This document shows positions 34,969-51,300 of a stretch of DNA of 64,000 bases, in pieces. The translations under genes were made by a program, and so were the position numbers. The stretch lies in NCBI GenBank assembly GCA_027459745.1, contig DAIDHL010000001.1, positions 13,828-77,827 on the forward strand. Reading direction: 5' to 3'. The notes under the pieces were generated by a model. It saw nothing but the letters and a program-made list of their open reading frames with translations. It was not told the DNA's origin and ran no database searches. Position 1 is the first letter of the stretch; each line of letters starts with the position of its first letter. Source of the DNA: Candidatus Levyibacteriota bacterium (lineage in GTDB: Bacteria > Patescibacteriota > Microgenomatia > Levybacterales > UBA12049).

Positions 34969-36360
34969 TTAGAAATCTTTTTTGAAAGGAAGTGTAAAAA
35001 GCTTATTATCCAAACAGTACTTTATTCGATTTAATATAGAAGTTGGGTAGTCTGTGGATAAATAGTCGAATTTTGGTCGATAATAAATGTTATTAATTGA
35101 GATACTGTCCACGTACGAATATAACTTATTTACAGCATCAGGAATACTTACGCCAGAGGCGGTTACGGGAGCAATGACTGTATCGTAACCAACATTGTAG
35201 TAATTGTCTTTTTTTAGAGCTAGTTCATAGAACCAAATATGTTCAGTGTATTTGTCTGGGAAATTAATTGAAATATTTGACTGATAATTGCCTGCTTTTA
35301 AATCTTGAATTAGATTGAACAATGTTATCGAAACTCCCACGCTTCCCAGTTTGTAAGGATTTTTTTTATTAACTACGCTTTCGAAATAATAAGAGAGATT
35401 GGGCATTTGTTCTAATGTAGTATAAAATGAGTTAAATCCAAATCTATTAGGACAAAATTCTCCAAAATATACTTTATTTGTTTTTCTATCAATCAACAAC
35501 GAAGCATCCCAGATGAATAATCCTTTATGTTTTTTTGCTATTTCATCGACAATCGGAGGGAAAGATAAATCATGAATTTTGCTATCCATACTTATCGGGA
35601 AAACTACATCCCCTGCACAGCCCACCTGGTATGAGAGATTGCCGCTACCTATAAACTTATTCTCAAACATGACTGTCATTCCTAGGGGTTGTCCATCATA
35701 ATAAATTTTTTCTGGAGTTATTTCTACTACATCTTCTATCTTCTTTTCTAAAATGAAACCAAACTTCTCATATTCGTGTTGGTTTTTATATAAGTTGTCA
35801 ATTAACTGTTTTCTTGCCTGAAGAGGATCATTTATAGGTGGAACAAATGTCGCGACAGAATCAGTCTGGGATTTTAGCACCCATACTTCTTTACTTTTAT
35901 TCAAAAAAGCTATAGCTTTATCAACAGAGTTAAATTTTTCTATTAACGATTCTGAAATATTAGGATAGTGTTTCTTAACGAATTCTTTTGCTTTATTCCT
36001 GTCCAATTCATACTCTCTATCTTCCTCTGTAGGGAATATGCCTTCAAATCCCATGGCCTGCAATTTTTGAGCGTATTTAAAAACATAATTAGATTCACAA
36101 ATGACAAAATAATCAGAAGGATTTTTGATTTTCTTAGCTTTTTTCAAGAAAACATCAGCATCGATCTTATTAATAATTTTGTTATATAAACTCAATCGTT
36201 GTTTTTTATCTAGAGGAGACTCTTTCTCAAAAGGTTCATTTGAAGTTCTGACATCTTTTAAATTTGCAATTTGGGCGAGTATTACTTCTTGACCTTCTTT
36301 TTGAAGTTTGTATGCAAGCGAGAAAATGAAACCTTCAAAGCCTATGATAATATATTTCAT
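34969..36360 (-). CDS. PurD-like (glycinamide-ribonucleotide-synthetase family) ATP-grasp ligase, paralog A.
   Basis: Segments are collinear with PurD. MKYIIIGFEGFIFSLAYKL matches the GARS_N MKVLVIGSGGREHALAWKL region. MGFEGIFPTEEDREYELDRNKAKEFVKKHYP matches AGLKIFGPT..A.LEGSKAFTKDFL. KVYFGEFCPNRFGFNSF matches PKVIEFNCRFGDPETQ. Confidence 0.5.
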   Translation of the reverse strand: MKYIIIGFEGFIFSLAYKLQKEGQEVILAQIANLKDVRTSNEPFEKESPLDKKQRLSLYNKIINKIDADVFLKKAKKIKNPSDYFVICESNYVFKYAQKLQAMGFEGIFPTEEDREYELDRNKAKEFVKKHYPNISESLIEKFNSVDKAIAFLNKSKEVWVLKSQTDSVATFVPPINDPLQARKQLIDNLYKNQHEYEKFGFILEKKIEDVVEITPEKIYYDGQPLGMTVMFENKFIGSGNLSYQVGCAGDVVFPISMDSKIHDLSFPPIVDEIAKKHKGLFIWDASLLIDRKTNKVYFGEFCPNRFGFNSFYTTLEQMPNLSYYFESVVNKKNPYKLGSVGVSITLFNLIQDLKAGNYQSNISINFPDKYTEHIWFYELALKKDNYYNVGYDTVIAPVTASGVSIPDAVNKLYSYVDSISINNIYYRPKFDYLSTDYPTSILNRIKYCLDNKLFTLPFKKDF

Positions 36361-36366
36361 GAGATT

Positions 36367-37830
36367 TTAAAAAGTGACCGGAAAAGGTAGTTTATATAGC
36401 TTTTTTTGTAATCCATATCTTAAACGATTTAATATTGAGCTAGGATAATCCAACGAAAGAAAATCTGATTTAGGGCGATAATAAATTCCTGCCAAAGAAA
36501 ATCCTTCAATGTTTTCAAACAACATTCTAGTCGCTTCATCAATAGAATGGCCAACTCCAGTTATTGGTGCAAGTTGCCAATCATATCCTACGATTCTCAT
36601 TTTATCATTTTTCTTTTTTTTGTAAACGTCCCAAGACCAGATGTGTTTAGAAGCTTCTTGAGTATAATTTACTGAAGCACCGGATAAAAGATGTCTCTCG
36701 GTCGGATCTCGTAATAAATTAAATAATGTAGTTGATACACCTACCGTACCCAATTCAAATGGATTTTCTTTTTTAACAATTTTTTCAAAAAAATAATGAA
36801 TTGAAGGTAATTGAGATAGACATGTAAAAAAAGAGTTATATCCAGGTCGATTAGGGCAAAATTCGCCAAAATAAATATCTCCTGTTTTCTTATCAATTAA
36901 TAAAGATGCGTCCCAAATAAACAGTCCTTTATGTTTTTTTGCCATTTTGTCAATTATAGGGGGGAAAGTTATCTTGTCGATTTTGTTATCTAAATCTATA
37001 GGAAAAACAAGATCAGCTGCACAGCCTGTTTGTAAAGATATATTACCGCTACCTATTTGTTTGTTTTCAAAATTTATAGTTAGAGATAAAAGTTTTCCGT
37101 CATAGTAGATTCTCTCTGGCGTGACCTCCGCAACAGAGATAATTTTCCTTTCCAGAATAAAGCCTGCATCTTCATAATAATCCTTAAATGCTTCCAGAGT
37201 TTCAATAACTTGCCATTTTGCAAGTTCGGGATCATCTGTGTTTGGTACGAAAGTCGGTGCCCATAAGTTTTTACCTTTAAGAACCCATACTTTATCTCCA
37301 TTATTTTCTTTTAAAAATTTCTTTCCTCTTCGGATAGTTCTAAATTCTGCTTTTTCTGCGATTTTAACATCCTTGTAATATTTTTTAACAAAATTTTTAG
37401 AGAAGTCTCTATCGACTTCAAATAAACGATCTTTCTCGGTTGGAAAATTCCCCCGTGTAAATCCTAGCGCCTTGACATGATCTGCGTATCTAAATAAATT
37501 ATTGTAGTCAAAAAAAACAAAGTAATTATCTTTATCTTTGATTCTTTTCATTTGTCTTAAAAGTTTTACGGCAGGAATCTTATTGATCATATTTTTGTAT
37601 AATGACAATCTTCTTTTTTTTTCAACACTGGTTTCGGAGTCATTAGTTTTTTTCTCAATTCTGGTTAAAGTTGTTTTTCTGTCCTCAACTATTCCCACAA
37701 TAACTTCTTGCCCTTCTTCTTGTAGTTTATGTGCAATTGGTAGTCCTTCTCCCGCATATGTGAAGATAATGTATTTCATACTAGTAATTAAAGAATAATT
37801 TCTGCGAAATTGCAAGAATTTATACAACAT
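36367..37830 (-). CDS. PurD-like ATP-grasp ligase, paralog B. The true start is probably the internal MKYIIFTYAGEG at about nt 37776.
   Basis: Same collinear motifs as paralog A: KALGFTRGNFPTEKDRLFEVDRDFSKNFVKKYY; DIYFGEFCPNRPGYNSF. It lies tandem to the ORF at 34969. Confidence 0.5.
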   Translation of the reverse strand: MLYKFLQFRRNYSLITSMKYIIFTYAGEGLPIAHKLQEEGQEVIVGIVEDRKTTLTRIEKKTNDSETSVEKKRRLSLYKNMINKIPAVKLLRQMKRIKDKDNYFVFFDYNNLFRYADHVKALGFTRGNFPTEKDRLFEVDRDFSKNFVKKYYKDVKIAEKAEFRTIRRGKKFLKENNGDKVWVLKGKNLWAPTFVPNTDDPELAKWQVIETLEAFKDYYEDAGFILERKIISVAEVTPERIYYDGKLLSLTINFENKQIGSGNISLQTGCAADLVFPIDLDNKIDKITFPPIIDKMAKKHKGLFIWDASLLIDKKTGDIYFGEFCPNRPGYNSFFTCLSQLPSIHYFFEKIVKKENPFELGTVGVSTTLFNLLRDPTERHLLSGASVNYTQEASKHIWSWDVYKKKKNDKMRIVGYDWQLAPITGVGHSIDEATRMLFENIEGFSLAGIYYRPKSDFLSLDYPSSILNRLRYGLQKKLYKLPFPVTF

Positions 37831-43914: not shown

Positions 43915-45306
43915 TTAATTGCCAAACCATGTCCACGAAGGGGTACCTGAATAGGTAAGTGTAATAGATTGTCCTGCTGGTACATAAAAAGAACCAGCAG
44001 TACTTAACCCTGTAGATTGTCCTCCAATGGCAACTCCTGTTATGGTTCCTCCGAAGAGGGTAACAAAGGCATCAAAACCAAAGTTGTTAGTGTATGCAGT
44101 TCCAGAGGCGGGAATTGCTGGTTGAGCAGGTGAGGTGAAATATCCCACGGGGTTAAATCCTTTGTTATCCTTTATTATATGTCCGGTGCCAGTACCTAAT
44201 TGAATCGCACCGCTACTCCAGGAACCACTGTCGGTACTAAAGTTGTTGCCTAGGATCATTATGTTGGTTGGAGTGCCGGAGGTTAAGTTTACACAGCTTC
44301 TTCCACTGCCGCCAGGGTTAAATTGGTTTCCTTGAATTAGAGTTTCAGAAATATTATCAGGTAATATTCCGTCGGCTGTTCCATGTGCACCTACATTATA
44401 GAAAATGTTACCTTGAATAATAATTCTATTTCCATTTAATCTTATATTTTCAGTACCCCCGACTCCATCAAAAGTACAACCAATAATTTTACCATTATCG
44501 CCTTGTATCTTAATACCTCTTCCATAAGTGCTATATATTGGGCCGACGAATACACAGTTCATATAGCTATTTAGTCCTGTCAAATCCACTATATGGAAAG
44601 ATCTATCAGTGTGTACTCCTCCCAGACCATTATTCTCAAAGTCACTGTTTAGTATCATATTTTCATCACTAGCATCAATTTGTAAACCGATTCCATCCCC
44701 TTCGTTACTAGATATACCATTATCAAATAGACAATTTACTACCCGATTGTGATGACCTGTACCTGAGTTGCCATCTTGAGATATATGAAGTCCTGCCCCC
44801 CAGGGATTGGTAAAATGACAATGATCCCACAAACATTGGATTGCTCCGTAAGCATAAAATATATCTCCGGCAGTTTGATTAGCGCCTTGTCCATCGAATA
44901 TGAGATTAGAAAAAAGCGCTCCTACTATGCCTTTACCAGCGGCTGGAGTAAATTGAATTAAATTGTCGTTTAAGGAAGCTTTAGCAATAATTTTTGCACC
45001 CATTCCATCAGCTGTACCCCAGCCTCCTTGTCCCATAACTCTAATAGAGTCTGAGATAGTAATTTTAGAACAGAGGTATTTACCATTGGGTAAAAATAAA
45101 GTTCCACCACTTGCAACGGCAGCGTTTACTGCATTTTGTAGGGCTGTTGTATCATCAGTAGTGCCATCTCCCACTACCCCATAATCTTTAGCATTGATGA
45201 AAAGATTTTTTAGTGTCCCATCTGAATTATGAGAAATTGCAAGAAAACTATTGAGAACATTGCCCCAATTTCCATCATCTCCTCCAACTGTAGGTAATCT
45301 AGCCAT
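43915..45306 (-). CDS. Right-handed parallel beta-helix protein of the pectate-lyase-3 / phage-tailspike-like superfamily: a candidate polysaccharide depolymerase or surface protein.
   Basis: AKDYGVVGDGTTDDTTALQNAVNAA is the hallmark Pectate_lyase_3 motif. Numerous G/N/D-rich beta-helix rungs follow (NCLFDNG, ILNSDFENNG, IQGNIFYNVG, LGNNFS). There is no signal peptide. The gene is visibly more GC-rich than its neighbours. Confidence 0.6.
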   Translation of the reverse strand: MARLPTVGGDDGNWGNVLNSFLAISHNSDGTLKNLFINAKDYGVVGDGTTDDTTALQNAVNAAVASGGTLFLPNGKYLCSKITISDSIRVMGQGGWGTADGMGAKIIAKASLNDNLIQFTPAAGKGIVGALFSNLIFDGQGANQTAGDIFYAYGAIQCLWDHCHFTNPWGAGLHISQDGNSGTGHHNRVVNCLFDNGISSNEGDGIGLQIDASDENMILNSDFENNGLGGVHTDRSFHIVDLTGLNSYMNCVFVGPIYSTYGRGIKIQGDNGKIIGCTFDGVGGTENIRLNGNRIIIQGNIFYNVGAHGTADGILPDNISETLIQGNQFNPGGSGRSCVNLTSGTPTNIMILGNNFSTDSGSWSSGAIQLGTGTGHIIKDNKGFNPVGYFTSPAQPAIPASGTAYTNNFGFDAFVTLFGGTITGVAIGGQSTGLSTAGSFYVPAGQSITLTYSGTPSWTWFGN

Positions 45307-45320
45307 AATGTTATAAAAAA

Positions 45321-45497
45321 TTATCTTCCGTAAGGACCTGAACCAAACCCTTGTTCTGTTTTAGTTTGAGAAATAGAGTTTAAGGATTTAATAATGCCTG
45401 AAATTCCGGTTATGGTAATAATAAATAATCCAATGAGAAGCAGAAATTCTTTTCTGGTAACTTCTTTTTGAAGAAAATTATTATTGAGGAAATTCAT
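45321..45497 (-). CDS. Small ORF (58 aa) with one hydrophobic helix preceded by TRKEFLL, a twin-arginine-like motif. It is uncertain whether this is a real gene.
   Basis: ATG at 45497, stop at 45321-45323, not in the supplied ORF track because it is under 60 aa. Translation: MNFLNNNFLQKEVTRKEFLLLIGLFIITITGISGIIKSLNSISQTKTEQGFGSGPYGR. It lies between tatC and the beta-helix gene. Confidence 0.2.
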   Translation of the reverse strand: MNFLNNNFLQKEVTRKEFLLLIGLFIITITGISGIIKSLNSISQTKTEQGFGSGPYGR

Positions 45498-45548
45498 AGC
45501 TATAAAAAGTATAGACAGAAATATTGTCGTATTTCAAGGTCTGCTATA

Positions 45549-46304
45549 TTAGAGATTGCCAGCCTGTTTGTTAAAAAAATAAATGATGACTACTGAAAGA
45601 TAAAATAAAATAATCAAAGGTATTGCCATAATAGTTTGGTCTATAGGATCTAGAGTAAAAATAGCCGAGACTACAAAACAAGCCACAATTAAATGTCTCT
45701 GATATTTTAAAAGAACATTTATTTTTAGAGGCAAAACAAAATTTATTAATATTAAGACAACTGGCAGCTGAAATAGTATAGATATGCCTATGAAATATTG
45801 CATCACAAAAGATAAATATTCATTGCTGGAAATTAATGGGTGCAGTTGGCCATTATTGAACAAATTAAAAAAATGTAGAGTAGCGGGAAGGCTTACTAAA
45901 TATGAAAAACTAAGTCCACAAATTAATAAAAAAACAGAAAGAAACATTAAAAAAAATATTGCTTTACCTATTTGTAAAGAAAATGTTGGTTGTATAAATT
46001 TAAAAATTTGATATACCAGTATAGGTAAAGAAATAATAAAACCAAAGATAACTGAAACTTGAAAGGCAAAATTCAGACCTCCCACGGGTGATGTGTAATA
46101 TAATGGCTCATTTAATGGGGTTATAAGAAATTTAATAAGAGTGCGATAAAAGTAAAAACCTAGGCACGTACATAAAAATAATGACAATAACCACCAAAGC
46201 AATCTGGAACGCAATTCTAATAAATGACTGTTAATTGAATTTTTTTTCGGAAGAGGATTATCTCGATTTAGTTTTTTTCTTTTTTGTGACTGATTTTTTT
46301 TCAT
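45549..46304 (-). CDS. tatC: Sec-independent protein translocase TatC. The annotated start overlaps tatA by 47 nt, so the true start may be downstream.
   Basis: HLLELRSRLLWWLLSLF is the conserved N-terminal TatC motif. Six TM helices in about 250 aa. Confidence 0.85.
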   Translation of the reverse strand: MKKNQSQKRKKLNRDNPLPKKNSINSHLLELRSRLLWWLLSLFLCTCLGFYFYRTLIKFLITPLNEPLYYTSPVGGLNFAFQVSVIFGFIISLPILVYQIFKFIQPTFSLQIGKAIFFLMFLSVFLLICGLSFSYLVSLPATLHFFNLFNNGQLHPLISSNEYLSFVMQYFIGISILFQLPVVLILINFVLPLKINVLLKYQRHLIVACFVVSAIFTLDPIDQTIMAIPLIILFYLSVVIIYFFNKQAGNL

Positions 46305-46461
46305 TGGTTAAATTCTCATCAGTTTTTTCATTCAGTCCTTTTCTAAATTCTTTTAAAGCTTCTCCCAAACCTCGAGAAATTTCTGAAATTCTTTTTCCTC
46401 CGAAAAGAAGCAATAAAATTAATAAAATTAAAAGTAACTCTTCAAATCTTAGTCCAAACAT
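46258..46461 (-). CDS. tatA: Sec-independent translocase TatA/E.
   Basis: MFGLRFEELLLILLILLLLFGGKRISEISRGLGEALKEFRKGL is the classic TatA architecture: a TM helix, a hinge FGxK and an amphipathic helix. Confidence 0.85.
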   Translation of the reverse strand: MFGLRFEELLLILLILLLLFGGKRISEISRGLGEALKEFRKGLNEKTDENLTNEKKSVTKKKKTKSR

Positions 46462-46526: not shown

Positions 46527-47315
46527 TTGACAAATAATATGTTAATTCTACAAAAAGTTAAAAGAACAATATTTATTTTATTTTACATAATCGTCTTAAC
46601 AACATTTACGCAACAAAATGTTTTTGCGTCTACATACGGTTCCGGAAACTATGGCTCAAGTATTTATAATAATGGATCATCAAATTCATCTGCCAGTTCG
46701 GGATCTTCTTCCTCTAGTGGAGGAAGTTCTGGGAATAATAATCATAGTAACCCCTGTACAAACATTCCGCCTGTTTCTTATCCAGACTTATACGAGATTG
46801 ATATAAAAGGAATCAATGCGACTTTGTACTTAGCACCACCTCCGATGCCTTATTCTAACTATCAAATCAGTTTTGGTAACGGTTCCAAAGATGAAGGATA
46901 TAATGTGACTTTTCCTATGAACAATGCGAAAGGGGCTATAGCCTATACTGTACAGGATTTGCAACCGAATACTAGTTATACATTCAAAGTCAGAGCGTTA
47001 AATGGCTGCATGCCCGGTAAGTGGTCATCAGACTTAGCGGCAAACTCTCAAGGTAAAGATAGTTCTTTTGTAGAGAAATACTATCCTTCTACACCTCCTG
47101 TTATACCATATGTTCCAGTAAAAAATGTGGTCACAACCCAGAGTGGTACTTATCAGAAAGGTTCACCTGCACAGTTTGTTGTACCACCACAACAGAGGCA
47201 GACGGTAACACAAAATGTCCAACCTAAAAATTCTAATTCCACATCTGCCAAGTCATCTGGAGGAAAATCTTGGTGGGGTAGTATTATTAACTTTATCTCA
47301 CATTTTGGACTTTAA
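46527..47315 (+). CDS. Secreted protein with a Ser/Gly-rich low-complexity linker and a fibronectin-III-like domain.
   Basis: Signal-peptide-like N-terminus (IFILFYIIVLTTFTQQNVFAS) followed by SSNSSASSGSSSSSGGSSG. The FN3-like motif is YTVQDLQPNTSYTFKVRALNG. Confidence 0.5.
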   Translation: MTNNMLILQKVKRTIFILFYIIVLTTFTQQNVFASTYGSGNYGSSIYNNGSSNSSASSGSSSSSGGSSGNNNHSNPCTNIPPVSYPDLYEIDIKGINATLYLAPPPMPYSNYQISFGNGSKDEGYNVTFPMNNAKGAIAYTVQDLQPNTSYTFKVRALNGCMPGKWSSDLAANSQGKDSSFVEKYYPSTPPVIPYVPVKNVVTTQSGTYQKGSPAQFVVPPQQRQTVTQNVQPKNSNSTSAKSSGGKSWWGSIINFISHFGL

Positions 47316-49404: not shown

Positions 49405-51300
49405 TTATTGAAGAGCAAATCCTTTTAACTGTCGTATTCTATCTCTTCGTCGCTTTAATAAGCTTTTCTCAGAAAGTCCTTTTACTTTTAAGAAAGCATA
49501 TCCAAGAGCATCATGTATGGCCTTTGCAGTTATGTAAGGATTTTTATCTTCAGGAATAACTTCATCAATAAGCCCGAGGTCTTTTTGATCGGCTGCTGTC
49601 GCCCTCATATTATTTATTGTAAGTTTAATGTCTTCAACTGTAGGGTTTGCTTCATTATTAAGAATGGCAGTTGCCGAACGTGGTTCTGCCACAAAAGCCA
49701 TGCTTTTTCCCGTCATAGCTACATGATCTCCAAGTGGTGTGGTGGCCAGTCCGCCACCACTTCCGAGTGCGCCTATCACCACAGAAATAACTGGATGTGG
49801 GTAAGTTATTCCTGCTTGGATTGACTTGGCTATTTCTCTTGACTGACCGTTCTTTTCTGCTTCCAGAGTAGGCTTTGCTCCGAGGGTATCTGTAAAAAAT
49901 ACTACTGGTAAGTGCAATCGCTCACCCATAGCTAACATCCTTTGCATATATTCAAAATCAGCGGGACCCGGGCTTGACGGGATTTTATTTACTTTATCTC
50001 CGACTTGAATATAACTTGGCTGATTACCAATTGCTAAGAAAGGCTGCTCACCAATTTTGCCTAGTCCAGCAATAATTGCAGGATAGTTTATATTTCCTTG
50101 GTCTTGAAAGCTATTGTATAAAGGCAAAAAGTCACTAAAAGAATGGGACATAAAAAATTCAGAGTCTGGTCGATTTGCATTCTTAATTAATGATTCATAT
50201 TGTTTATATAATCTATCCTCAGTAGATTCTTGTGTTGATGGTAAATCTTTTCCCCATAGTGTACTCGCCTCACTGGGTTGTCGATTTACATTGGAAAATT
50301 GGGATGTATTAGCTCCTTGTACATCTTTATACGAAATACCAGGTTGTACTTGGAAATTAGCTATCATTTCAGGAGTAATAACTCTATGATCTCGTTTTGT
50401 TAGTCTTAAATAATGATGAAGAAACTTTAATAAATCATGTTGATCATCAACTAAAAGGTCAACATTCCTTTGTATAAGATTAATCTCTGCACTTTGTTCG
50501 CCTTTAAGAACTGGCTTTTTCGTATATGTTTCAATAACTCTAGGTCCGGAAAAACCGTAGTCAGTTCCTCGAAATGCTACGACGAGATCTGCCAAAGGAA
50601 CACCACTTGCAGATACACCACCCCATACTTGCCCATTCAGAACTGCTACTGATGGTTGATCTGTGAGTCTCTTATGTGATTCTATGGCTTGTACCATTCG
50701 GGTCATCTGAATAAGGCCTGCGAAATTTTCTTGTTGACGCACTCCTGCTGATGAATATATTGAAACAAGTGGTAAATTTCTACTTATAGCCAGGTCTGAT
50801 GCAGCTTGAAGTTTTTCGCCGGCAACAACACCTAAAGAACCTGCAAAAAAATCCCAGTGCATACTATAAAGGGCTATACTTTGCTCGCCTATTTTCGCAG
50901 TTCCCACAGCTGCTGCTTCATTTTTTCCCTTCGCTGCTTCCTTTGCTAGTTTATCAGTATATGTTTCAAATCCGCCGCTAGTCAGGCGACGAAGAAGGCC
51001 TATTCTATCTTCTCCAATTTGCCATCCTTTATGTCTTTCTCTGAATCGCAGTCTTACTTTCATACCTGCAGCAGTCTGTGCTGCATCAACTTTTGGGCGT
51101 AATGTCATAATACGACTCAGAGGAGTTGCCACTTCTTTAAAAGGAGGAAGTGCCTCTACTAATCCTGCAACATCACCTTGATCTGCATAATATTCTGAGG
51201 GTTCTTGAGGGATATGGCGATTTTTAAATAATTTAGCTTGGCTTGGAATTTCAGCTGATGACATAGTGCGTATTCTAGCAAAGCAAGAATGGTTGTGCAA
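49405..51300 (-). CDS. Acetyl-CoA (acyl-CoA) carboxylase carboxyltransferase, fused beta (AccD-like) and alpha (AccA-like) subunits.
   Basis: The N-terminal half reads AKIGEQSIALYSMHWDFFAGSLGVVAGEKL...IYSSAGVRQQE, matching AccD ...AFEFAFMGGSMG...SASGGARMQE. The C-terminal half reads HLPVVFFTDTLGAKPTLEAEKNGQSREIAKSI...VISVVIGALGSGGGLA, matching AccA [23 protein letters not shown]...VIGEGGSGGALA. Confidence 0.75.
   Translation of the reverse strand: MHNHSCFARIRTMSSAEIPSQAKLFKNRHIPQEPSEYYADQGDVAGLVEALPPFKEVATPLSRIMTLRPKVDAAQTAAGMKVRLRFRERHKGWQIGEDRIGLLRRLTSGGFETYTDKLAKEAAKGKNEAAAVGTAKIGEQSIALYSMHWDFFAGSLGVVAGEKLQAASDLAISRNLPLVSIYSSAGVRQQENFAGLIQMTRMVQAIESHKRLTDQPSVAVLNGQVWGGVSASGVPLADLVVAFRGTDYGFSGPRVIETYTKKPVLKGEQSAEINLIQRNVDLLVDDQHDLLKFLHHYLRLTKRDHRVITPEMIANFQVQPGISYKDVQGANTSQFSNVNRQPSEASTLWGKDLPSTQESTEDRLYKQYESLIKNANRPDSEFFMSHSFSDFLPLYNSFQDQGNINYPAIIAGLGKIGEQPFLAIGNQPSYIQVGDKVNKIPSSPGPADFEYMQRMLAMGERLHLPVVFFTDTLGAKPTLEAEKNGQSREIAKSIQAGITYPHPVISVVIGALGSGGGLATTPLGDHVAMTGKSMAFVAEPRSATAILNNEANPTVEDIKLTINNMRATAADQKDLGLIDEVIPEDKNPYITAKAIHDALGYAFLKVKGLSEKSLLKRRRDRIRQLKGFALQ

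Follow-up and report, generated by a model that had tools for sequence, protein, structure and literature searches.

A divergent TatC, a signal-only small protein and a signal-less tailspike-like protein form a conserved gene module in Patescibacteria with a possible role in Tat hitchhiker export

The DNA analysed here (the window) is a stretch of 64,000 nucleotides from contig DAIDHL010000001.1 (positions 13,828 to 77,827; assembly GCA_027459745.1) of a Candidatus Levyibacteriota bacterium. On its minus strand lies a module of four genes: tatA and tatC of the pathway for twin-arginine translocation (Tat), a 58-aa open reading frame (ORF) built as a Tat signal peptide with a short tail, and a 463-aa beta-helix protein, hereafter called the cargo. 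The small ORF belongs to a family of uniform size that travels with signal-less, tailspike-like genes across related loci, and the TatC encoded beside it comes from a clade that has lost the pocket for the second arginine of the Tat motif, the very position at which the small protein has exchanged arginine for lysine. From these comparisons we propose that the module might be a specialised Tat "hitchhiker" system for export and tethering of its signal-less tailspike-like cargo, a proposal to which we give an even chance of being right. The parts of the module are as follows.

46258-46461, minus strand: tatA (67 aa), first gene of the module (PF02416, E 5.7e-15)
45549-46304, minus strand: tatC (251 aa), member of a divergent clade (PF00902, E 3.9e-44, 151 bits; TIGR00945, 140.8 bits against a cut-off of 132.7)
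45321-45497, minus strand: 58-aa signal-peptide-only protein, supported by family alignment, hidden Markov model (HMM) scan and motif statistics; contains TRKEFLLLIGLFIITITG
43915-45306, minus strand: beta-helix ORF of 463 aa (the cargo), from the ORF listing; contains NAKDYGVVGDGTTDDTTALQNAVNAA
45202-45306, minus strand: conserved N-terminal module of the cargo, aa 1-35, MARLPTVGGDDGNWGNVLNSFLAISHNSDGTLKNL, kept across loci; AlphaFold2 predicted local distance difference test (pLDDT) 55-69
44152-45201, minus strand: right-handed parallel beta-helix body of the cargo, about aa 36-385 (PF12708, PF13229, AlphaFold2 model, Foldseek)
43915-44151, minus strand: C-terminal beta-sandwich domain of the cargo, about aa 386-463, plus stop codon (AlphaFold2 strands at residues 404-462; PHROG tail-spike C-terminal matches)

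The ORF listing gives the order tatA, tatC, 58-aa ORF and 463-aa ORF on the minus strand. All of these elements had been pointed out in an earlier note on this DNA, made from the letters and their ORFs, and were found where it had placed them; the identity of the tatA-tatC pair was borne out by Pfam with the values given above. A gap of 51 nt separates tatC from the small ORF and one of 14 nt the small ORF from the cargo, while tatA and tatC overlap by 47 nt as called (46258-46304), so that tatC may in truth start further downstream. The gap between tatC and the small ORF holds a candidate for an internal promoter of the small ORF and the cargo (45508-45537, minus strand; TTGAAA-18-TATACT, 10 of 12 positions sigma-70-like). 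Promoter and terminator scans of the window were otherwise at background, with promoter-like sites at about the expectation from shuffled sequence, and this 10/12 site was their sole notable feature.

The small ORF of the window consists of an n-region, the motif T-R-K-E-F-L, an uncharged h-region of 19 residues, a lysine, a linker of 13 aa and the C-terminus QGFGSGPYGR. Compared with the Tat consensus S/T-R-R-x-F-L-K, the cap residue, first Arg, Phe and Leu are present and the second Arg is replaced by Lys. A profile search returned 59 relatives from a 90%-clustered database, and an HMM scan of 1.84 billion cluster representatives gave 1327 matches at E<=1e-3 (334 at E<=1e-10), with lengths between 48 and 94 aa in all 150 of those listed. 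Given so many relatives of uniform size, the 58-aa frame is not a chance ORF, and the resemblance to a Tat signal with RK in place of RR, pointed out in the earlier note, proved sound. Motif statistics were drawn from 197 members. The short n-region (..LL.KEM) leads to a cap residue (T in 80, D in 63, S in 22 and N in 18), which is one of these four helix N-cap residues in 183 of the 190 members fitting [RK][RK]-x-F. The first Arg never varies; at the second position 151 members have K, 35 have R and the rest some other residue, and the F-L that follows (as E-F-L in the signature) is nearly invariant. The uncharged run of the h-region is exactly 19 residues long (interquartile range 19-19) and is followed by K or R in 176 of 197. 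A variable linker of 12-20 residues then leads to the C-terminal (Q/K)GFGSGPYG, usually with one residue more. Mean hydropathy of the h-region (Kyte-Doolittle scale, best window) was 2.30+-0.26, compared with about 1.5 for TorA and SufI.

The closest named model is NF038009 of NCBIfam, which aligns over nearly its whole profile of 70 residues but scores below its 100-bit cut-off both for the small ORF of the window (E 6.4e-11, 42.3 bits) and for ten relatives (45-60 bits, E 1e-11 to 1e-16). The group described here is therefore regarded as a sister of NF038009 and not as a member. A literature search returned no paper on the small-ORF family, and Tat in Patescibacteria came up only in passing mentions.

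The linked TatC proteins provide an independent view of the altered motif. The comparison took in 24 TatCs encoded in small-ORF loci together with the 114 database sequences that matched the window TatC best; the Aquifex TatC 4hts was aligned to the window protein. The sequences were divided into a clade of 36 (the 24 module-linked sequences and their 12 closest homologs, 33-100% identity) and 102 others from other phyla. In a cryo-electron microscopy structure of E. coli TatBC with substrate (2026), the first consensus residue caps helix H1, Arg1 contacts TatC E15 via water and stacks under F94, Arg2 is salt-bridged to E103 and rests against Y100, and the consensus Phe sits in a pocket made of F94, L9, H12 and L13; a TatC with E103A bound no substrate and was transport-inactive (PMC13323110). 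In the same numbering, the window TatC keeps the equivalents of H12, E15 and F94 but has Ser for Y100 and Ile for E103. Across the clade, none of the 36 sequences has E or D at 103 and none an aromatic residue at 100, although H12, E15 and F94 (Tyr in a few) are kept in all of them; a few carry a non-conserved acidic residue elsewhere in the loop. By comparison, E103 is present in 102 of 102 other TatCs and Y or F at 100 in 94 of 102. The second-arginine pocket is thus lost in precisely the clade whose partner has relaxed Arg2 to Lys, while the contacts for the cap residue, Arg1 and Phe are retained on both the TatC and the small-protein sides. The motif and its TatC co-vary. Huang and Palmer showed that increased hydrophobicity of the h-region restores binding and transport when either the twin-arginine site of TatC or the RR motif has been inactivated (PMC5539426). 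From these patterns the small protein is very likely a genuine ligand of its linked TatC.

Linkage was examined over a set of related loci (given an L number where a single one is meant). In GTDB genomes, a degenerate DNA pattern for the small ORF, with K as AAA only, picked up 2 loci (one belonging to a "Microgenomates group bacterium"). In metagenomes it picked up 53 stretches; 24 of these proved to belong to the family, and the others had matched by chance, such as a recurrent human-gut gene. Together with protein look-ups this gave 37 loci, 30 of them non-redundant, which were analysed by script. The two closest orthologs of the cargo (58-59% identity; one JGI contig and one Logan contig) are embedded in the same array of divergent fn3 gene, tatA, tatC, an ORF of 68-70 aa and the beta-helix gene, and their small ORFs are clearly homologous to that of the window. 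More generally, 27 of 28 evaluable non-redundant loci have a signal-less cargo gene, with the N-terminus MARLPTVGGDDGNWG..LN.FL..HN.DGT, whose start is placed -7 to +81 nt from the end of the small ORF. In each of the 23 non-redundant loci whose flanking sequence is long enough, tatA and tatC are found at a distance of no more than about 2.3 kb. The seven loci without tatAC are contigs of at most 3.4 kb that end too early. Among the options raised in the earlier note, a surface enzyme exported with a helper peptide fits this adjacency, the tatAC linkage and the residue loss in TatC best.

The genes occur in at least three orders. The window and most other loci have a divergent fn3 gene followed by tatA, tatC, small ORF and cargo; in L011 and L015 the fn3 gene is followed by small ORF, cargo, tatA and tatC; and in L024, L030, L044, L059 and L064 tatC and tatA (with a TatC of about 345 aa) point away from small ORF and cargo. 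Linkage that outlives such rearrangement argues for function. Where tatAC has moved, the small ORF is still found beside the cargo, which speaks for a role in the service of the cargo and against one as a core Tat subunit. The last five loci also represent a distinct subfamily, with the small ORF carrying ..KEMDRKEFLKYSG..GFGSGKYGA and a cargo N-terminus of the form MAEQRLPTVNGDDGAWG.ILNQYI.KEHY. Over the 251 kb that the module loci comprise, with 740 unique ORFs of at least 50 aa, Tat-like N-termini occurred only in the small ORFs and in one other protein. That protein (239 aa; L040:73-792, minus strand) lies near the module of L040, has the RK-type N-terminus ..NTRKAFLIVLGTIVIVILM.. (TRKAFL) and might be another substrate for the variant TatC.

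The cargo belongs to PF12708 ("Rhamnogalacturonase A/epimerase, pectate lyase-like"; residues 36-232 score 51.8 bits, cut-off 27) and to the right-handed beta-helix fold class. PF13229 also matches the beta-helix body. In PHROGs the cargo hits 21 families, mostly tail or tailspike, with phrog_2234 spanning residues 23-382 and the tail-spike C-terminal families phrog_11182 and phrog_31370 matching residues 395-460 and 342-460, and the top PDB sequence match is 7chu, the pectin-lyase-like protein ORF18 of Geobacillus virus E2. An AlphaFold2 model built with 52 homologs (mean pLDDT 90.2, predicted TM-score 0.84) is a regular right-handed beta-helix with three-strand rungs and a beta-sandwich behind it at the C-terminus; uncertainty is confined to residues 1-30. 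Foldseek matched this model to 146 PDB entries at E<=1e-3, with probability 1.00 to AlgE4 and tailspikes. Leading the list were 7chu, the epimerases AlgE4 and AlgE6, the tailspikes of Sf6, HK620 and Dettilon, phi29 gp12, and Klebsiella and Acinetobacter depolymerases. Against viral models there were 442 matches at E<=1e-3, mostly "pectate lyase superfamily protein [Caudovirales]". Both the tailspike-like fold and the absence of a signal peptide, read from the letters in the earlier note, are thereby upheld: the N-terminus (MARLPTVGGDDGNWGN...) has no hydrophobic signal-like stretch. Among the comparisons proposed in the note, that with tailspike depolymerases held and that with GH28 did not. 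There was no PF00295 match, the NCBIfam rhamnogalacturonidase and polygalacturonase models reached 12-37 bits against cut-offs of 500-800, and none of the Pfam and NCBIfam models tried places the cargo in GH28. Residues D214, E215, D222, E224 and H185-H186 are invariant across the eight closest homologs. Judged from these similarities, the beta-helix is probably a glycan depolymerase (or binder) domain.

Across loci, the N-terminal 35 or so residues of the cargo are kept, with the full signature M-A-(R)-L-P-T-V-G-G-D-D-G-N-W-G-T-I-L-N-x-F-L-x-V-x-H-N-x-D-G-T, and the parts beyond vary. Some cargos (460-655 aa) are PF12708 beta-helices, one of 547 aa is beta-helix-like and matches a minor tail family of phages, and short ones (138-168 aa) match phage tail-fibre tips in their C-terminal halves (phrog_9017, phrog_4549, PF26209, PF25692). 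On a 374-kb contig (L005:1592-10321), the module has a Prim-Pol/AAA_25 primase-helicase and a serine recombinase as neighbours, and behind its short tip-like cargo (138 aa, PF26209) comes a 572-aa protein with a GDSL-lipase domain; mobile DNA or the exchange of cassettes may be concentrated at the cargo end of the module. Two other interpretations of the cargo N-terminus and its gene were discarded. LPTVG is not a sortase LPxTG signal, as both the residue order and the position in the protein are wrong, and a single gene broken by a frameshift does not account for small ORF and cargo, as they are separate genes in all loci, with different frames or overlaps, and no fusion was present among 431 retrieved proteins.

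The N-terminal module is common to most of the 120 homologs listed. Four others (P0005-P0008) are 47-53% identical to the cargo over the helix and the C-terminal domain and have unrelated N-termini. One of them, the 47% identical tailspike P0008, is encoded in phage contigs (L003:224-5390 and L004:43-5220) directly after a head-tail adaptor (phrog_442), along with an HNH endonuclease and a 785-aa virion protein. These are probably phages of related bacteria and could help to infer the glycan target. Taken together, the comparisons indicate that the cargo is related to phage proteins by descent and modular exchange. Homologs in viral sequence, for which the earlier note had proposed a search, thus exist as tailspike relatives, but the small ORF and close relatives of the cargo do not extend into it: scans of viral contigs found no small ORF, and two pattern matches to close cargo relatives were not confirmed by tblastn.

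A further gene lies divergently beside the module.

46527-47315, plus strand: divergent Sec-type secreted fn3 protein (262 aa), probable partner (fn3, E 5.8e-9)

The mature N-terminus of this protein, STYGSGNYGSSIY, shares its [Y/F]GSGxYG motif with the small ORF's C-terminus, and in a six-frame translation of the window [YF]GxGxYG had two matches only, one in each of these proteins. Divergent fn3 orthologs with a Sec signal accompany the module in 14 loci, including loci with tatAC elsewhere. Right after the signal peptide they carry a (YGxGx)2-3 repeat, with (x)xYGxGxYGxGxY in all, and often end in a C-terminal membrane anchor. No fn3 YGxGxY gene was detected within the sequence fetched for L024, L030, L044, L059 and L064. 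In L048 (L048:1177-3056; Ga0247778_1000740), a divergent 86-aa protein starts with MYYTFASTYGSGQY and ends in a membrane anchor, which makes it a minimal YGxGxY protein, and a sortase-like gene adjoins it.

The export of signal-less proteins by the Tat pathway together with a signal-bearing partner is established (PMC4273604, PMC10924467), and we suggest that the module might work along such a route. From the operon tatA-tatC-small protein-cargo, conserved in Patescibacteria and with the cargo as last gene, the cargo would be made and folded in the cytoplasm, likely as an oligomer like tailspikes. The small protein would act as a Tat signal peptide with a short tail, composed of cap, Arg, Lys, x, Phe, Leu and the 19-residue hydrophobic segment, then a basic residue that may serve as "Sec-avoidance" residue and some 20 exported residues ending in GFGSGPYG. 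Binding between the two might plausibly involve the 35-residue N-terminal module of the cargo and the GFGSGPYG tail; the low confidence of this segment in the monomer model is as expected if it becomes ordered on binding or oligomerisation. The T-R-K-E-F-L signal would engage the E103-less TatC, and the complex could then cross via TatA as in the hitchhiker route. Because there is no evident peptidase site and the hydrophobic span has 19 residues, the carrier would probably remain as an N-in, C-out membrane tether that holds the cargo outside. The fn3 protein, with two to three motif copies at its distal end, is a plausible second docking platform to which the cargo may be passed on. The fold, the small-protein family, the gene linkage and the co-variation of TatC with the motif are shown by the comparisons above, and binding, co-export, final location and the glycan acted upon are inferred.

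Several observations weigh against hitchhiker export. The exported part of the carrier, at about 20 residues, is to our knowledge far smaller than any known signal-bearing hitchhiker partner, the family alignment has no conserved small-x-small motif for signal peptidase after the h-region, and the name of NF038009 goes no further than "twin-arginine translocation system-associated protein". By E. coli standards, a TatC lacking E103 is inactive (PMC13323110). L048, the sole exception among the 28 loci, has tatA-tatC-small ORF without a cargo downstream and a convergent groEL next; lineages of this type may have their cargos encoded elsewhere. Moreover, the N-terminal module is not exclusive to Tat-linked loci, and its primary role may therefore be another one, e.g. 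oligomerisation. Saccharimonadales contigs and the genome CP025011.1 (1.45 Mb) have stand-alone genes with the N-terminal module and no small ORF or tat gene within 7 kb. Streptomyces phages of the BRock type encode a full-length cargo homolog including the module, here with the N-terminus MxRLPT..GD.G.W..LLN.FL..HN.DGTLK (73% identity over 33 aa at the N-terminus, 34% overall, E 1e-43), in a tRNA-rich region beside a peptidase and a TerD-family gene, outside the tail module.

L068:4001-5398: Alone3 gene 41 (gp41)
L069:3791-4738: BRock gp186, annotated "collagen triple helix repeat-containing protein"

Two other explanations concern the small protein itself. It might be an accessory or pseudo-substrate of the minimal TatAC, either a substitute for TatB or a primer in the degenerate site, with the cargo merely co-transcribed and leaving by another route or staying inside the cell. 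The linkage of the small ORF to tatAC in every locus with enough flank, the name of the related NCBIfam model, the cargo-less L048, the absence of TatB from these systems and the very uniform length and h-region of the family would all suit this role. We nevertheless consider it unlikely, given that the small ORF has the N-cap, R, F, L and basic c-region of a Tat signal and no match to PF02416, the TatA/B family, that it keeps with the cargo and not with tatC when gene order changes, and that the cargo lacks an export signal although proteins of its tailspike-like type work on glycans outside the cell. Alternatively, the small protein might be an independent Tat-inserted anchor, N-in and C-out, whose GFGSGPYG docks the fn3 protein or the wall, while the cargo leaves otherwise, by lysis or by another pathway that recognises its N-terminal module, and maybe binds the anchor afterwards. 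Such an anchor is consistent with a membrane-spanning segment of 19 residues without evident cleavage site, with the insertion of signal-anchored and tail-anchored proteins by Tat (PMC10924467), with the same motif on the extracellular side in the fn3 neighbour and with N-terminal-module proteins that lack a small ORF in Saccharimonadales and phages. It leaves unexplained, however, why a peptide with 20 exported residues would need a pathway for folded proteins and why it is so tightly coupled in translation to a signal-less cargo in nearly all loci, and we hold it to be decidedly unlikely.

What the cargo acts on and where it came from can likewise be read in more than one way. Compatible with hitchhiker export, the enzyme might trim or remodel the cell's own envelope glycan, for chain length or removal of phage receptors, and not the surface of another organism. 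On one side, the cargo gene abuts genes for a DUF4012 protein, a Bac_transf sugar transferase, a ManC-like nucleotidyltransferase and two GT1-type glycosyltransferases (one with a GT4-type N-terminal domain), which belong to a large surface-glycan island of about 40 kb, almost uniformly on the plus strand (window 1-43846). Its nearest non-cellular relatives are also tailspikes of phages that presumably infect similar bacteria and would thus recognise their surface glycan. The connection to the adjacent island drawn in the earlier note may hold for the window, but the adjacency is not conserved elsewhere, where the neighbours include MerR, hydrolase/Fic, primase/recombinase, ProRS and SecDF genes, and the exchange of depolymerase for tip-like binding domains among cargos looks more like diversification of specificity than housekeeping. 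A role on the own glycan is hence possible but doubtful. Far less probable, and in our view largely refuted already, is that the cargo is a prophage remnant or a recently acquired foreign gene marked by its higher GC content. Tailspike homology, the relatives beside a head-tail adaptor in phage contigs and the second-highest GC of the window (0.400 against 0.338+-0.035 over 52 genes, z 1.8) might suggest so. The GC at third codon positions is average (0.259 against a mean of 0.263, z -0.1, rank 27 of 52), and the excess resides at codon position 2 (z 3.2) in a gene with 23% Gly+Ala compared with 12%; the raised GC is due to a Gly/Ala-rich protein and is no sign of foreign origin. The noticeably higher GC described in the earlier note is real overall but reflects amino-acid composition, and its phage-derived or horizontally acquired gene is borne out in the homology and not in the acquisition. 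Searches of the window around the cargo found no integrase or phage genes, tRNA and Rfam scans of the window were empty, and the genes on the other side are RecO, a class-II aminoacyl-tRNA synthetase (GlyRS-like) and an acetyl-CoA carboxylase carboxyltransferase. As the same module with the closest orthologs is also kept in other chromosomal contexts and the viral contig scans came back without a small ORF or close cargo homolog, the prophage remnant proposed in that note is not supported. By context, the cargo is a resident chromosomal gene and not a virion component.

Elsewhere in the window, GC reaches its minimum (0.26-0.27) at 19-22 kb, and for two minus-strand ORFs at 34969-37830 (463 and 487 aa) Pfam gave no match. 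At 49405-51300 (minus strand), a single chain of 631 aa joins the Carboxyl_trans (beta) and ACCA (alpha) domains of acetyl-CoA carboxylase carboxyltransferase. Fatty-acid synthesis is usually described as lacking in the group to which the organism belongs, which makes this fusion notable.

As a tentative extension of hitchhiker export, the components may form a surface-display system of Patescibacteria, made of a re-tuned TatAC, a carrier of about 60 residues, an fn3 stalk with the YGSGxYG docking motif and swappable phage receptor-binding modules on a 35-residue adaptor. If so, tailspike-like proteins would equip the cell for recognising, binding or breaching the surface of its host bacterium, and specificity would be swapped through the exchange of cassettes with phages. 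This would suggest a purpose for the enigmatic minimal Tat of ultra-small Patescibacteria, namely the export of folded, phage-derived, surface-active proteins. Host recognition by these episymbionts is poorly understood, and the operon offers a concrete candidate for attachment to, or breaching of, the host envelope. It further provides a clear example of exchange between the receptor-binding proteins of phages and the genes of cells. Likewise, a TatC clade without Glu103 and Tyr100, both considered essential to bind Arg2, paired with an R-K partner and an unusually hydrophobic h-region, represents a natural experiment on Tat recognition that parallels the laboratory suppressors and opens the rules of Tat targeting to tests in a different context.

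Parts of this arrangement resemble known systems. Phage tailspikes and depolymerases (Sf6, HK620, Dettilon, phi29 gp12, 7chu) have the same three-part build of N-terminal module, beta-helix and C-terminal beta-sandwich, but the cargo lies outside a virion cluster, in a tat operon, and has a cellular N-terminus of the MARLPTVGGD type in place of a particle-binding domain. Alone3 gp41 and BRock gp186 share homology over the full length, yet they are encoded by phages with no small ORF or tat gene nearby. TIGR03808, the "TAT-translocated repetitive protein", is likewise a beta-helix type that uses Tat, although its first-rung similarity to the cargo is weak (E 2.3e-4), its members carry an RR signal in cis, and the cargo, at 19.9 bits against a 120-bit cut-off, is a non-member. 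For the small protein, the near full-profile alignment with NF038009 implies that curators had already noticed a Tat association, whereas the name of that model covers neither the link to a cargo nor the co-variation with TatC. Small proteins consisting of a Tat signal and a short conserved C-terminal motif, about 70 aa or less, also occur beside redox enzymes, e.g. TIGR02811 ("formate dehydrogenase region TAT target"); they are another sequence family, with an RR motif, a redox context and a canonical TatC. The closest parallel is found in the Tat hitchhiker pairs and trios (E. coli HybO/HybC, DmsA/DmsB and PaoABC), in which a signal-less folded protein is encoded beside the sole signal-bearing partner. 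Their carriers are full-size, cofactor-binding proteins with RR signals and a canonical TatC, whereas the module described here has a putative 58-aa carrier with a tail of about 20 residues, an RK motif, a TatC without E103 and Y100 and a glycanase-like cargo without cofactor. It thus differs from the known hitchhiker pairs in every component: a signal-only carrier, R-K, an altered TatC and a phage-derived cargo with a shared adaptor.

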